Source: a bacterium (lineage in GTDB: Bacteria > Electryoneota > Electryoneia > Electryoneales > Electryoneaceae). From it: DNA of 37,601 nucleotides. The stretch covers positions 1-37,601 of the forward strand of contig JAZDLX010000193.1 of the NCBI GenBank assembly GCA_043801585.1, in the 5' to 3' direction. This document shows, in pieces, positions 15,001 through 24,000 of the stretch. Position numbers: made by a program. The number at the start of each line of letters is the position of its first letter. Within the stretch, counting starts at the first letter, position 1.

Positions 15001-18000
15001 GGTGAAGCGGCTTGATATTTCCTTCTTTTCGAGCGGCAAAGGCGACACCATGGTGTACATGTTTGATGCCGACGAATTGAACAACAAGTTGGCGGAAAGC
15101 AAGAAGAGCAAGAAGGATCGCAAGCGCGGCCCGCGTCGTCGTTCTTCCTGATGTCGCTTTCACGCTTGATCCTTGATATTCCTTGCGAATGAAGCACCAG
15201 TTGGATGATTTCAGCGTCCTCCCGGTGGGAGGACGTTTTGTGTTTAACCTGCTGACAAATGGTACTGGCTCGAAGCATCCGATCAGGTTTCAGAGAAAAC
15301 AAGTGAACCGTGTCGGGCAAGCCGACAGGGCCAATTCCGTTAATTGTCATTGCAAGGAATACTGACACTTCGGCATGACGAAGCAATCTCGTTGTTCCCG
15401 TTAGTGAAGTAGGCCGGGGTTTGCAGACACCATGTGTCTGTGAGCTTCGCGAACAGAATGTTCGCTTCGGTTCCGAACCCGGCTTCAGATCATCCTGACA
15501 CCGCACCTTTTCGTCATCCTGATCCCGAAGGGTCGGGAGAAGGATCTCTCGATGTGACTCTCTCTAACATTTTCGAGAACGGGAGGCCAAACACTAAAAA
15601 CGCCGTTTCGATCGCTCGAAACGGCGTCATTTCACTTACAAAATGCCCGGCTACTTGGCGTCGAGCACCTCGACCTCGAACACCAGGGTCGCTCCCGGCG
15701 GGATCATACCGCCCGCGCCACGCTGTCCGTAGGCGAGTTCCGGGGGCAACACCAGGATGCGAGTTTCGCCGATTTTCATCGCGGAAACACCCAGATCCCA
15801 GCCACGAATTACCTGTCCGCCACCTGTCCTGAACTGGAAGGGTTGACCACGATCCTTGCTGCTGTCGAATTTGCGGCCATCGGTCAGCCATCCGATGTAA
15901 TGCACCGTCGCGGTCTTTCCGTTGCCGACCGGTTCTCCTTCGCCTTCCTTCGTCACCGCGTATTGCAGCCCTTCCGGACCATCAACGAGATTCAGTGTTT
16001 TCAGATCCGGCATGTCGGTCTTCATCGCTTGTGTCTCCTGTTCGGTTGTCGGCGTATCGGATTTTGTGGTCTGTTCCGATTTTGCTTTGTTTTTACCGCC
16101 GCAACCGACGGCCAGCACCGCCACCAGCAGCGTCGCGATCATCCACGTCCGCATGGTTTCTCCGTTGTGTGATCGGGTCCGTTGTATCCCTGCGAACCAC
16201 GAAGTCTCTATTTGTATCCCTGCAACAACACCTCAAACACCAGCCAGGCATTGGGTGGAATGGGTGGTTTGGATCGGGAAATGCCCCGCTTTCCATAGGC
16301 AAGGTCCGGCGGAATGACGAGCACCCATTTGGCGCCACGCTGCATCTGACCGACCGCCTCGTCCCACCCCTTGATTACCTGTCCCGCACCGACCGTGAAT
16401 TCGATGGGTTTGCCACGTGAAAGCGAGCTGTCAAATTTCCTGCCATCCAGCAGGTAGCCGTTGTAATGGACGATGGCGGTGCTGCCAAGGGGTGGACTCA
16501 TCATCTGCTCGCCCAGCCGCACCTTCGCGATGAGCAGGCCGGTGGGTGTTTTTTCAAACGTCAGTTTCGAGAGATCGGGCATGCCCTCCGCGGTGTTCCA
16601 CTCTCCCCGTGGTGGATCGGGAAGCTGAGCAGCCGTTATCGTGGCAAGGACAAGGACCGCTACAACGGACAACCGCAGCAGACGAAGGATTCGCATCATT
16701 TTCTCTCCCGGGACTCAGTCAGCGTTCAGGTCTGGCGCGAGATGCAGCAAAGGTACGTCATTCAGTTCATGCCAGGGCAAATCCCCCACGAGGAGTGTGA
16801 GGTCGCCACCGCCAGCCCCTGTCGGCTTCGCCCGTCCTCCGTGCTCCACCGCCCACTCCTCCAACTCCTCTTGCTCATTCACACGCCAGGGGAGTCTCGC
16901 CATGATCGCACACTCGTCCATCCGGGCGACGAATTCATCGAAGGCATCGTACAGTTCCTCGCTACGGGCGCAGAACCAAAGGGGAGCGAGCACATCCGCG
17001 GCATCGGCAAGCCGAGCAAGTGGACCGTCCGCGAGGGGATCGCTCTGAATCCACCCCTCGAAGATATCGACGAGCGCCCGTGTGCTCGCGGGCACTCCGG
17101 TCCACGCGAGGGTCAGCGCCGGAGTACCCTCCAGCGGCTGAATCGGCACGGCATCGACTCCTGAAAGACTCAATCGATAGGTGATCGGACCACCCATCGC
17201 ACACGCCCACACGTCCGCTCCGCTCCCTTTTCCACCCTGAGCACGGCTGTGGGCATCCGCTGCGAGGGAGGCGACCTCACGGCGCCGCTCCTTCCACAGC
17301 AGACCTGCCCGTTCATGGCGCAGCGCAATGATTCCCACCGCTTCCGCCGCGGAGGAGCCGATCCCCAGTTTCCGGACCTCTCCCTCCGGGCCTGCTGCCT
17401 GAAATTCTGCCCGGTCGATGACGACCGATGTCAGGGGGTCATCAGCTTCGAAACCGGCAAGCGCAGGAATCTTCTGTTTCAGCGCCTCTTCCACGACGGG
17501 GGAAGGTGTTTCAACTGCTTGTCCTTCGCGGACGGTCAGCCACCGATCCACCGGTGCGAGAGCGGCCGTGCCGCCGTGCATCACCGCGTATTCCCCGGAT
17601 AGCATCACCTTGCCGGGCACGTGGACAACGGGCGCGGTCATGCAACCACCCGTGCACCCGGAGCGGGCAGGCAGGAGAACGTTTCACGGACTCCCGGTAT
17701 TTCAACCGCCAGTTTCGCCACCGTGTCGAGCGACGACTGTTGGGTAAGGAAAACCACATGAGGCCCGGCGTCCACGGTTGCCCAGACCGCCAGTCCCCCT
17801 TTTCTCCAGGAACGCACCTCGCGGAGCAGCGCCAGGCTCGTCCCGGTCCAGTAGAGCAGCGCGGGACGTGTCGAGAGCATCACCGAGTGCATCGCATACA
17901 TGTTCGCTTCCATGACGCTCCCGGCGATTTCCAGATCGAATTTCAGGCAGGCTTCCCGGATGCGATGAAAATCGTTCCGCGCGGCATCCACCCACGCAGC

Positions 18001-21000: not shown

Positions 21001-24000
21001 TCACCTTCGGCGCCGTTCGTAGTTGTCCGGGTTTCAAACAACCTGTCAGCACCATCGAGGTCGTTAATTCGTTCAACACTGCTCGCAGAAAACGCTCCGC
21101 TCCCTTTTCCCCATCCGTGAGAAAGGGCAGCAGCACCATCCGCGCTACGCCAACGATGGACGCACCAAGCGCCAGCGCTCGAGCGGCATCCAGACCATTG
21201 CGGATACCCCCCGAAGCGATCACAACCGTTTCGTCCGCCAGGATGCGCCGGGCGGCAACAATACTGAACGCCGTTGGCACACCCCAATCCGCGAGCACCT
21301 CACCGGTTCGGCGCAGCTCTCCGTTGACTTTCCGGTGGCTTTCCACCTTCGTCCACGAGGTTCCGCCCGAGCCGGAAACATCTATGTAAGGTACCCCCGC
21401 CTGACGCAGTTTCTCCAGAGCTCCAGGTGACAATCCAGCCCCTGTCTCTTTGACCAGAACCCGTCCTTCAAGAGCGTCCAGCAACCGTTTCAGGGCATCA
21501 AGGATACCCGCAAACTCCCTGTTTCCATCGTATTGGACCAGTTCCTGCGCGGCGTTCAGATGAACGCAAAGACCATCCGCATCAATCGACCTGACCAGAT
21601 CTGCAACTTTATCCGTCGGTACTTCCAGAAGCTGGACCGCACCGATATTCCCAAGCAGGACGCCATCCGGACCGATCTGTTCGCGCACCGTGAAATCCGC
21701 TACGGTTTCGGGGTGCTCGAACATCACCCGCTGGCTGCCCAGGGCGAAGGCGATCCCGATCCGGCCACAGACCGATGCGAGTCCGTGATTCAGTTTGCCG
21801 GCCAACTCCACACCACCGGTCATGCTGGTGACCATCAACGGTGCGGAAAGGGTCTTGCCGAAAAACGGCGTCGCCAGGTCAACGTCAGCAACGTCAACCT
21901 CTGGAATCGCATCATGCAGCAGATGGACATCCTCGAGGAGAGTAGTGCCGCCGTGCGCGACATCGCTGCCCGCCACGATCCGAAGATGCTCACTCTTTCG
22001 CCGTAGAATCCCGGAATCGGTCACTCTATCACCCAAGGAGCTTTAAATATCAACAACTTCGCTCTTTTCACCGAGCAGGAAACCTACACTCGCGAACCGT
22101 CGAGGCGCAATGACGAATTCTTGTTCAAGAGACAAACACCCCAAGGTACCGCCAGTTCTGAAACCCGGTTCTGAATGGTCGGGACCGGGCTTTCAGGGAC
22201 AGTATACACACAATCTCGACCCTTCAGGATTGTGTGTATACTGTCCCACTCTGTACTTCGGTTCGCCACCGCGAAAATAATCCGGCGGAATCCTTGTGTC
22301 GGATCACTGCTTTCCGCCAGTGGGCGGAAAGGCGCTCAAAACCCGGCATAGCGAAAAACACCTTTGGAGATTACCGCGCCATGCCGACGCTTCGGCATGG
22401 CTGGTAATGACAAAACAGGCGTCATCACCAGCCCTCCGGCGTTAGCGCAGGGCGCGGTGATCCCCAATTGATTTTCCCTAGTTATGGCGTTTCATCAGCG
22501 CTTGCACGTCCACCCATAAAAAAAGCGGCCGGGTCACCCCGACCGCATCATGTTCAATCCAGTTGTGCCACCATTCAACGACGTTTGCCCAAAATGAACC
22601 GAGCCTGCCCTTTTCAAAAGGATCTGTACCGTCGCCGTGACGTACCTCTTTACCGAAACAGCGCCTTCACACCACCCCAGGTCTGTTGAATGCCTGAAAG
22701 CGTGACATAAACCGTACGCACAGGGGAGTACTCGACCTTGCCACTCTCGCTCATGACAGCGCGGACCCTGTAGGTATAAGCCCTCGCCGTTTGTTTAAAG
22801 ATGTAGGGATCCGTGTACTCATAGCTGCGGGCACCCTGTACGGGAATCGGCTGAGTGTTGTTCAACACCTGAAATGAGACTCCATCCGTGGACCGTTCGA
22901 CGAGAAATCCGGTGCACCCGGTTTCATCCAGAGTCGTCCACTGAACAACGACCTGGCCGCCGGTTTCGCGAACGTTCATGTCGTTGAAAACGGAACCCGC
23001 AAAAGCGCCGACCGCAAGCATCGCCGCAATCAGGACAGAGAATACACTCGTTTGAAGGATTCGCTTCATCACTGCATAAAGTAATCGTTTCAAATCCCGA
23101 GGAGCAACTCAACTCCGCCCAACCGGAGATATTCTTTCGAAAAAGCGAGGCTCGGAACCATCGCCGCCTTGTCCCCGGGGGACCTCCGTATTACATTCAC
23201 CGTCCTAAACCGGGGGGCAGGCTCCCGGCCCCATTCATTTGTGAAGTGAATCCGATGGCTCGTGAACAGAAACGCTTGACTCGTAAAGAGTTGAAAGAAG
23301 ATCCTTTGATGACGGCGCTGTCAGAGGCCCAACAATGGTTCGATCTGCACGGAACAAAACTGATAATCGGCGCCATCATTGTCGCTGTTGCCATCTTCGG
23401 CTCGATCTTCTATGGAAGAATCCGGGCGTCCGCTGAACAGGAAGGCGCAGCCTCCCTGATGGACGTTGGGACGAAAGCCCAAGATCAGTCAACTCAAACA
23501 CTTGTCGCCCCGTTAATGGAAGTCGCCGACAACTACAAAGGCACCCAGGCCGGTGCGGACGCCGTGTTTGCACTCGCCCAACTGGCGATTCAGGAGAACG
23601 ACTGGGAAAAGGCCCTGGACTATTTCGAGCGTTTCGAGAATGAATACGGCGACCTCTATCTTTCAGGTTCCGCTGCCTTGATGGGGCATGCAACAACCCT
23701 TGAAAACCTGGGACGGAGAGATGAGGCGGCGGTGCTCTATGACAAGGTTGCATCTCGCAAGGACGCTCACTTCGCCAGCGAGTTCGCTCTCCTGAGCGCT
23801 GCACGCTGCTGGGCCATGTCAGGCGACACCGCCGCGGCCCGCGACCGCAACAACCGGGTGATCGCGATGAAGTTGGCGTCGGAAGAGGCTCAAACTCGGG
23901 CAAAACTGAATCTCGCCGTGCTCGACGCTGCTCAATAGCGGCGAGGTCCCGCTTGACGTGATGGGAGCGGAAGAGTATATTCTGCGGACTTAAAGGAGTG

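Follow-up and report, generated by a model that had tools for sequence, protein, structure and literature searches.

A fused class II HMG-CoA reductase and mevalonate kinase in the mevalonate operon of the Electryoneaceae

Analysis of a 37,601-nucleotide window (GenBank assembly GCA_043801585.1, contig JAZDLX010000193.1) identified an idi2-fusion-mvd-pmk operon on the minus strand. All four open reading frames (ORFs) were found in the window, and their features are as follows.

16715..17641, minus strand: pmk, presumed phosphomevalonate kinase (308 aa; GHMP kinase)
17638..18603, minus strand: mvd, diphosphomevalonate decarboxylase (321 aa; TIGR01240)
18606..20942, minus strand: fusion of class II HMG-CoA reductase and mevalonate kinase (778 aa; both NCBIfam cut-offs passed)
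19587..20852, minus strand: reductase half, residues 31-452, including the C-terminal three-helix flap (about 405-455)
20403..20423, minus strand: cofactor helix, residues 174-180 (N-P-R-M-V-Q-R)
19545..19586, minus strand: linker, residues 453-466
18606..19544, minus strand: mevalonate kinase half, residues 467-778
20939..22024, minus strand: idi2, type 2 IPP isomerase (361 aa from GTG 22024; TTG 22036 possible)

Adjacent genes are separated by two 4-nt overlaps and one 2-nt gap. The GTG start of the fusion gene overlaps the idi2 stop codon, and the gene is a single open frame with no internal stops. The four ORFs lay where the first-pass annotation had placed them, except for the start of idi2: its interval of 16715..21976 was correct at the pmk end, but idi2 begins about 48 nt past the other end. 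The idi2 product scored 348.3 bits against TIGR02151 (cut-off 281.3) with the longer start and 336 bits with the shorter. Because only the longer form covers the model from position 1, the start was assigned to 22024 (GTG) or 22036 (TTG), not 21976. At 15 of 15 family loci, idi2 was upstream of the fusion and pmk was the last gene of the operon. A promoter and terminator scan of the locus gave no signal above shuffles, and an Rfam search over positions 15000-24000 returned no matches. A 20-bp palindrome upstream was rejected as an operon-specific element, as look-alikes occur on several other contigs and it is unmatched in the family loci.

The fusion was confirmed to be one real gene joining two consecutive enzymes of the mevalonate route, as first described. 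The same chain, read in a single frame, scored 369.7 bits against the class II reductase model TIGR00532 (cut-off 259.95) and 208.1 bits against the mevalonate kinase model TIGR00549 (cut-off 163.05), and its Pfam ranges were exactly those given earlier. Full-length matches with 67-90% identity were found in all 15 other family genomes, and the frame was open across the reductase-kinase junction in 16/16; the sole stop among the family fusions, at residue 753 in genome G010, lies near the C-terminus. Among 120 near-length homolog clusters listed, the window's own protein among them, 119 carried the reductase domain together with at least one GHMP kinase domain, in agreement with the earlier count. 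Residue conservation was read from 225 full-length fusion proteins (102 close and 123 distant), across which the catalytic residues were invariant or, in the kinase half, nearly so (D615, 101/102 in the close set). The linker sequence was unconserved across the fusions; the distance from His409 to the kinase motif, where measurable by pattern, was 62-69 residues in 75/102 close and 63-76 residues in 91/123 distant proteins. In the AlphaFold model of the fusion (pLDDT 87, pTM 0.61), the final helix of the flap (443-461) leads nearly straight into the strand that opens the kinase (467). Folding a dimeric protein as a monomer would also be expected to give a low pTM.

A set of 16 family genomes was used (our genome and 15 others), of which one is a single contig and one consists of two contigs. 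The fusion and the operon were present in all 16. The HMG-CoA_red domain occurred in 15/15 other family genomes, 15/78 genomes of the phylum, and 0/63 outside the family, so that the earlier view of a family-level trait holds with counts corrected from 14/15 and 14/78. DXR (other than type II), IspG, and IspH were searched for in the family genomes, with 0/16 each; among 25 genomes sampled from other families of the phylum, IspG and IspH were found in 25/25 and DXR in 24/25. A search of our own genome for DXR, IspE, IspF, IspG, and IspH gave no match, and IspD and DXS gave matches below cut-off only. By their sequences, the two best DXS-like matches appear to be parts of a two-gene transketolase divided between contigs C116 and C210. 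The reported absence of MEP-pathway enzymes was thus borne out in 16 genomes instead of one 92%-complete assembly, and these searches support the mevalonate pathway as the probable sole route of the family to IPP and DMAPP.

HMG-CoA supply was assigned to a trio of genes on contig C14 (4620-8273), whose existence was verified. Synthase, thiolase, and DUF35 genes are clustered, with the E-C-H-N tetrad and the HDxF motif intact, and the synthase scored 492 bits against TIGR00748 (cut-off 353). Clustering, tetrad, and HDxF motif are the features by which section 10 of PMC12960953 defines the archaeal-type HMGS/ACAT/DUF35 complex, which the trio resembles in all three. Unlike the archaeal complex, the Electryoneaceae trio is bacterial and would supply a lower pathway of the classical PMK/MVD type; its close homologs also occur in MEP-using relatives without the reductase. 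A strong synthase match was found in 34/63 reductase-less genomes from other families of the phylum, and all 30 loci examined, half of which (15) belong to genomes without the reductase, had an intact tetrad. The trio is therefore not part of the family-specific trait, and the family probably gained only the four-gene cassette.

We consider it likely that the fusion is a tethered biosynthetic bifunctional enzyme for steps 3 and 4 of the classical mevalonate pathway, serving as part of the sole route of the family and acquired with the cassette. The thiolase/synthase/DUF35 complex encoded on C14 would make HMG-CoA. Class II reductases are dimers with active sites at the dimer interface, and two fusion chains would likewise pair via their reductase halves. 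This dimer would reduce HMG-CoA to mevalonate, probably with a preference for NADPH. Each mobile flap at the C-terminus of a reductase half would bear one kinase, joined through a short, variable linker, to phosphorylate the released mevalonate; PMK, MVD, and IDI2 would complete the pathway. The tether may provide 1:1 co-expression and proximity, with the ATP step pulling the reversible reduction forward. This explanation includes no fixed interface or tunnel between the halves. The signs that bear on channelling are indirect, namely the linker, variable in sequence and length, and the pTM of 0.61. That the fusion has been kept through the junction in 16/16 family genomes and in hundreds of homologs may point to a role beyond passive tethering.

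A closer coupling through the flap, whether by flap opening that passes mevalonate straight on to the kinase or by gating of the reductase by ATP or prenyl diphosphates bound at the kinase, appears unlikely, but several features speak for it. The kinase is attached at the flap, which moves during catalysis according to PMC10070635, and the modelled flap helix is nearly continuous with the kinase strand. Linker length also stays within about 14 residues, although the linker sequence is not conserved, and the fusion has been retained over several phyla. However, stand-alone kinases with 54-57% identity to this kinase half sit behind idi2 without a reductase attached, and class II reductases in databases are fused to many unrelated C-terminal partners and once to the same kinase activity in reverse order (P0257, both cut-offs passed). 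If true, flap coupling would be an undescribed way to channel and regulate the committed step of isoprenoid synthesis, and a cassette with such coupling would let HMG-CoA-making bacteria switch pathway with four genes. New chemistry would be at hand only if channelling or flap coupling holds.

The best PDB matches of the kinase half were all mevalonate kinases, with a fold match to 2hfu (TM 0.84 of target). K476, E482, H483, E604, and the Gly-rich loop were invariant or nearly so in the close and distant sets, S568-S569 was conserved, and D615 was present in 123/123 distant fusions. We take K476, S568-S569, E604, and D615 to have their roles in mevalonate kinase within the three GHMP motifs, which include the catalytic Lys and Asp. 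The mvd product scored 234.8 bits against TIGR01240 (cut-off 171.35) and 132 against the monophosphate-type NF040704 (cut-off 475), and it shares with 3qt5 a Lys and a Met at the two positions occupied by Asn and His in chain 6n0x. Isopentenyl phosphate kinase (NF040647) was searched for in our genome, with a best score of 26.3 against a cut-off of 120. The lower pathway is thus predicted to be of the classical type, with a diphosphate-type decarboxylase and no isopentenyl phosphate kinase.

The fourth gene encodes a second GHMP kinase of the operon, as annotated, but its identity as phosphomevalonate kinase stays presumed because it falls below every cut-off. Its scores were weak and about equal on the phosphomevalonate kinase model TIGR01220 (50.2 of 165.7 bits) and the mevalonate kinase model (53.6 bits), which would fit a fused protein with one half inactive or acting on another substrate, for example with the roles exchanged, so that the fourth gene provides the mevalonate kinase and the fusion the phosphomevalonate kinase. 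Such an arrangement is quite improbable, since the fused kinase exceeds the mevalonate kinase cut-off with its catalytic residues intact, and the fourth gene is closest to 3k17 (Lin0012; E 2e-12), which we take to be a phosphomevalonate kinase, against 6e-5 for the best mevalonate kinase.

The reductase half belongs to class II. The class I model TIGR00533 gave only 40.6 bits (cut-off 441.8), 6dio (Delftia) and 1qax (P. mevalonii) were matched in the PDB at E of about 1e-110, and the top Foldseek hits were class II; for reductase chains of Pseudomonas mevalonii the TM, taken over the target length, was 0.88-0.94. E111, K296, D312, and H409 were invariant (102/102 close and 123/123 distant fusions), as was the ENxxG motif, and aligned to the catalytic residues of 1qax. 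E111, K296, and D312 match residues that we take to be numbered 83, 267, and 283 in 1qax. The flap His of P. mevalonii is given as His381 in PMC10070635.

The cofactor helix aligns to Asp146/Leu148/Leu152 of P. mevalonii. Met at position 4 was found in 102/102 close fusions and Arg at position 7 in 102/102 close and 123/123 distant fusions, and Asp at position 1 was absent from 16/16 family loci. The published NADH-type ("degradative") motif is Dx(V/L)xxxL and the NADPH-type Gram-positive motif is (H/Y)xSxxxR (PMC13488460). The former was not found in the cofactor helix of the fusion; compared with the latter, Arg7 is present, with Asn at position 1 and Arg at position 3. The helix thus fits neither strict motif and resembles the "undefined" enzymes with Met4 and Arg7, all of which preferred NADPH when assayed (PMC13488460); these assayed enzymes belong to other branches. 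From the helix, the reductase half probably prefers NADPH with some tolerance for NADH. The closest solved structures are those of the NADH-using Delftia and Pseudomonas enzymes.

None of the 16 family genomes had a PF00368 match other than the fusion, which therefore must be the biosynthetic reductase. The name of TIGR00532 ("degradative") and the NADH use of the best solved relatives would suit a salvage role, in which an NAD-dependent reductase oxidizes mevalonate to HMG-CoA and the kinase salvages external mevalonate. This is very unlikely: the Dx(V/L)xxxL motif is missing, oxidation would have to compete with phosphorylation for the same substrate, and the family would be left without another reductase or an MEP route. 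Finally, the assembly comprises 225 contigs and hmgr and mvk stand as unfused neighbors elsewhere, but an assembly or gene-calling artefact joining two such genes can be dismissed because independent assemblies show the fusion, with the junction open throughout the family and 225 full-length proteins aligned.

The family ancestor would have gained the four-gene cassette, joined it to the existing HMG-CoA-making trio, and lost the MEP genes. The gain is argued from counts alone (1 of 9 families). The operon has a GC content of 0.60-0.64 and a GC3 of 0.63-0.73, compared with a GC3 of 0.69-0.71 for nusA/infB, and this comparison did not indicate recent transfer. MEP-using relatives also carry the trio; since they already make HMG-CoA, the clean MEP-to-mevalonate replacement documented across the whole family suggests that a pathway swap can be cheap. 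Unfused hmgr was directly followed by mvk in 10/80 metagenome loci, so that fusion would need only the loss of one stop. Quick LG+G4 trees of chosen subsets (kinase, 77 rows; reductase, 94 rows; 14/102 close and 12 distant fusions, with unfused kinases picked for closeness to this protein) separated the family-type fusion from the Gammaproteobacteria/Calditrichota type. An independent origin of the two types was not upheld by one-clade tests, in which a single origin was not rejected (kinase, p 0.62, the constrained tree being the better of the two; reductase, p 0.057).

The fusion is a modest variant of known enzymes. Stand-alone class II reductases (P. mevalonii 1qax, Delftia 6dio, S. pneumoniae 5wpj, and Borrelia 9zw6) share its fold, catalytic Glu/Lys/Asp/His, and three-helix flap but have no fused kinase. 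MvaE of Enterococcus faecalis (PMC10070635) is likewise a natural bifunctional mevalonate protein with a biosynthetic, NADPH-using class II reductase; its partner is an N-terminal thiolase, the joined steps are non-consecutive, and its flap is free, whereas in the Electryoneaceae protein the kinase follows the flap. Many database entries name only a "degradative" reductase, an annotation that the present assignment corrects; pathway reconstructions based on it overlook the kinase and get the direction wrong. Engineering of the mevalonate pathway could also draw on the fusion as a natural module for two steps, with homologs in cultured bacteria.

A literature search found no study of an HMGR-MVK fusion. 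Its presence in other phyla, already recognized in the first-pass annotation, proved to be widespread in sequence databases. Eleven accessions stand in both the reductase and the kinase trees of Hoshino and Gaucher (2018; PMC6107057; supplementary Figs S7 and S8), from Caldithrix abyssi (APF20587.1), Woeseia, Nevskia, Marinobacter, Wenzhouxiangella, and others, with the same HMGR-II/MVK architecture. That study makes no remark on this fusion: "fused" occurs in one generic methods sentence and has no hits in the supplement. The novelty is limited because the fusion is widespread, is present uncommented in that supplement, and involves a reductase class that fuses with many partners. Compared with the Electryoneaceae protein, the database fusion group including these taxa reaches only about 48% identity in the reductase and 31% in the kinase. 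In the same study, the thiolase and synthase entries of C. abyssi are listed among Chloroflexi sequences.

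The fusion of HMG-CoA reductase with mevalonate kinase is genuine, and the first-pass annotation had read it correctly: one frame of 778 codons scores above the curated thresholds of TIGR00532 (369.7; cut-off, 259.95) and of TIGR00549 (208.1; cut-off, 163.05), and the profile search agrees with the Pfam ranges proposed for the two halves. The fusion gene stands second in a four-gene operon, whose genes overlap by 4 nt at two junctions and stand 2 nt apart at the third.

22024-20939, (-), idi2, first gene
20942-18606, (-), HMG-CoA reductase-mevalonate kinase fusion, second gene, single frame of 778 codons
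18603-17638, (-), mvd, decarboxylase, third gene
17641-16715, (-), pmk, presumed phosphomevalonate kinase, fourth gene

The idi2 gene had been drawn too short; its start lies upstream of the end assigned earlier, and a start at 22024 lets the match reach back to position 1 of the model.

The fusion was detected in all 15 other genomes of the family Electryoneaceae (67-90% identity), always in the same four-gene order, whereas 25 genomes sampled from other families yielded weak kinase-only matches at most. The reductase domain PF00368 was present in 16/16 family genomes and 0/63 of other families. Conversely, IspG and IspH were found in none of the 16 family genomes vs. 25/25 sampled outside the family, and DXR in none vs. 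24/25. In the genome under study, IspE and IspF were not detected, and IspD and DXS gave sub-cut-off matches only. These results bear out the earlier proposal that mevalonate-only isoprenoid synthesis is a family-level trait, and they follow the published rule that one pathway is used exclusively (PMC6107057, section 6). Close homologs that bear names carry the labels Ca. Electryonea clarkiae, Zixibacteria, and Calditrichaeota.

The upper half of the pathway has a wider distribution. The synthase encoded with a thiolase and a DUF35 protein on contig C14 scored 492 bits against the archaeal model (cut-off, 353); it also ranked first against the bacterial model, but far under that cut-off. Strong synthase matches (E < 1e-100, 67-77% identity) occurred in 14/15 family genomes and 34/63 genomes of other families. 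None of these 34 carried the reductase, and 12 of them belong to the sampled genomes in which IspG and IspH were found. In the 15 reductase-less loci fetched, thiolase always adjoined the synthase, and DUF35 was visible within the 1.5-kb flank in eight. The E-C-H-N tetrad, demonstrated to be essential (PMC12960953), was intact in 30/30 synthase loci. In three of seven wider regions from other families, the trio has genes for a biotin-dependent carboxyltransferase and for an enoyl-CoA hydratase as neighbours, a setting such as might be expected for methylcrotonyl-CoA metabolism. In these reductase-less genomes (loci L160-L174 and L186-L188), such a setting hints at a non-isoprenoid use of HMG-CoA, e.g., in branched-chain acyl-CoA metabolism. 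Because the trio is present in these other families, gaining the four-gene cassette was probably all that the family required, the upper half being older than the swap; this direction rests on genome counts. On C14, a cupin gene (L001:5753-6130) lies between synthase and thiolase, and the DUF35 protein (L001:7875-8273) shows a single Cys in its zinc-ribbon region.

For the lower route, the decarboxylase scored above the TIGR01240 cut-off and below that of the monophosphate model. It carries Lys and Met at the positions of Asn and His in chain 6n0x, the monophosphate enzyme, of which 6n0z is a mutant. No match to isopentenyl phosphate kinase reached the cut-off in the genome. The fourth gene fell under every cut-off, its best solved match being 3k17. 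Judged by sequence, the lower route reads as the classical mevalonate pathway, with phosphomevalonate kinase presumed.

Both halves of the fusion look active from residue conservation across aligned full-length fusions, 102 of them close and 123 distant. Reductase E111, K296, D312, and H409 were invariant and match, in alignment, the catalytic residues of 1qax from P. mevalonii. Kinase K476, H483, E604, and the glycine loop were invariant or nearly so, and D615 was kept in 224/225. The linker (453-466) varied in both sequence and length, and residues 1-30 showed no conservation and low model confidence. The AlphaFold model had a mean pLDDT of 87 and a pTM of 0.61, and Foldseek gave separate matches to class II reductases and to mevalonate kinases. 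In the 80%-complete family genome G010 (locus L014), the fusion contains one in-frame TAA at residue 753, past the last kinase motif and away from the junction, which is either a sequencing error or a short truncation.

The protein is most likely a tethered bifunctional enzyme. Its reductase halves would pair as a dimer with a kinase carried on each mobile flap, and the benefit would lie in the stoichiometry of the two activities, in their closeness, and in mevalonate being drawn off by the ATP-driven step. Flap movement of class II reductase has been described (PMC10070635), and since the kinase is attached to the sole moving catalytic part, flap-coupled channelling or regulation retains a slight chance beside simple tethering.

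NADH-dependent reductases carry Dx(V/L)xxxL and NADPH-dependent ones (H/Y)xSxxxR; every enzyme that combines Met or Leu at position 4 with Arg at position 7 favoured NADPH, and three of four also used NADH to some extent (PMC13488460). The cofactor helix of the fusion is N-P-R-M-V-Q-R. Met4 and Arg7 were found in 102/102 close homologs, and Asp at position 1 was absent in 16/16 family loci. From this motif, the name 'degradative' is a model label, and the reductase would probably prefer NADPH. However, the nearest solved structures to the reductase half are NADH enzymes, which counts against this reading, and for that reason we infer the cofactor rather than assign it.

A second large fusion group, at approximately 41% identity, bears the labels Gammaproteobacteria, Planctomycetota, Calditrichaeota, and KSB1, and the ESM Atlas holds fusion clusters of 58-120 members, mostly Pseudomonadota. 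Quick kinase and reductase trees place the two groups apart, and a single fusion origin was not rejected (kinase, p = 0.62; reductase, p = 0.057). Among 149 new 50%-identity representatives, our own profiles identified 22 as reductase-then-kinase (fragments counted) and four as kinase-then-reductase; one of the latter, P0257, passed both cut-offs in reverse order, and a member of its cluster is labelled Myxococcota. Other partners among 62 scanned proteins were NUDIX, polyprenyl synthase, squalene synthase, FMN-dehydrogenase, and cyclase. Class II reductase is a fusion-prone gene. Class II reductase fusions of other layouts (P0257/P0542, P0241, P0246, P0170, P0263, P0269, and P0273) include proteins that begin with the kinase and have a truncated flap, a reductase-kinase-NUDIX chain, a kinase-reductase-kinase chain of 1131 aa, and reductases linked to polyprenyl and squalene synthase domains, the longest reaching 1453 aa. 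Separate mvk directly followed hmgr in 10/80 metagenome loci. Kinases with 54-57% identity to the kinase half also occurred as stand-alone proteins on long contigs (P0431-P0437 and P0305), directly behind idi2 in the two loci read (L040:13-2067 and L041:5876-7945); no reductase, decarboxylase, or second kinase was found near them within the fetched stretch. This unit may derive from a fusion that split, represent the ancestral state before fusion, or serve in salvage.

Among the papers listed by searches of the openly readable literature, none deals with a natural fusion of reductase and kinase. Term searches of PMC13001223, PMC11052028, and PMC8237579 met no relevant passage, and PMC6107057 mentions fused proteins in a single generic sentence of its methods and nowhere in its supplement. 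Eleven accessions are nevertheless common to the reductase and kinase trees in parts 7 and 8 of that supplement, including APF20587.1 of Caldithrix abyssi; thus, a published data set already contained the fusion but did not remark on it. Its chemistry is ordinary and its architecture uncommented.

Around the operon, two FKBP-type prolyl isomerase genes (15651-16154 and 16208-16699, (-)) begin 15 nt past pmk on the same strand. The operon is likewise flanked by FKBP downstream and nusA/infB upstream in G008 and G011, though not in G005. Upstream on the same strand, a 147-aa ORF (22650-23093, (-)) has a signal-peptide-like start and gave no NCBIfam match. Upstream of idi2 lie two palindromic units (22196-22247 and 22364-22467), the first a perfect inverted repeat of 20 bp; these units are REP-like, with look-alikes on many contigs, and the second has five copies on contig C15, four of them spaced approximately 130 nt in pairs or runs.
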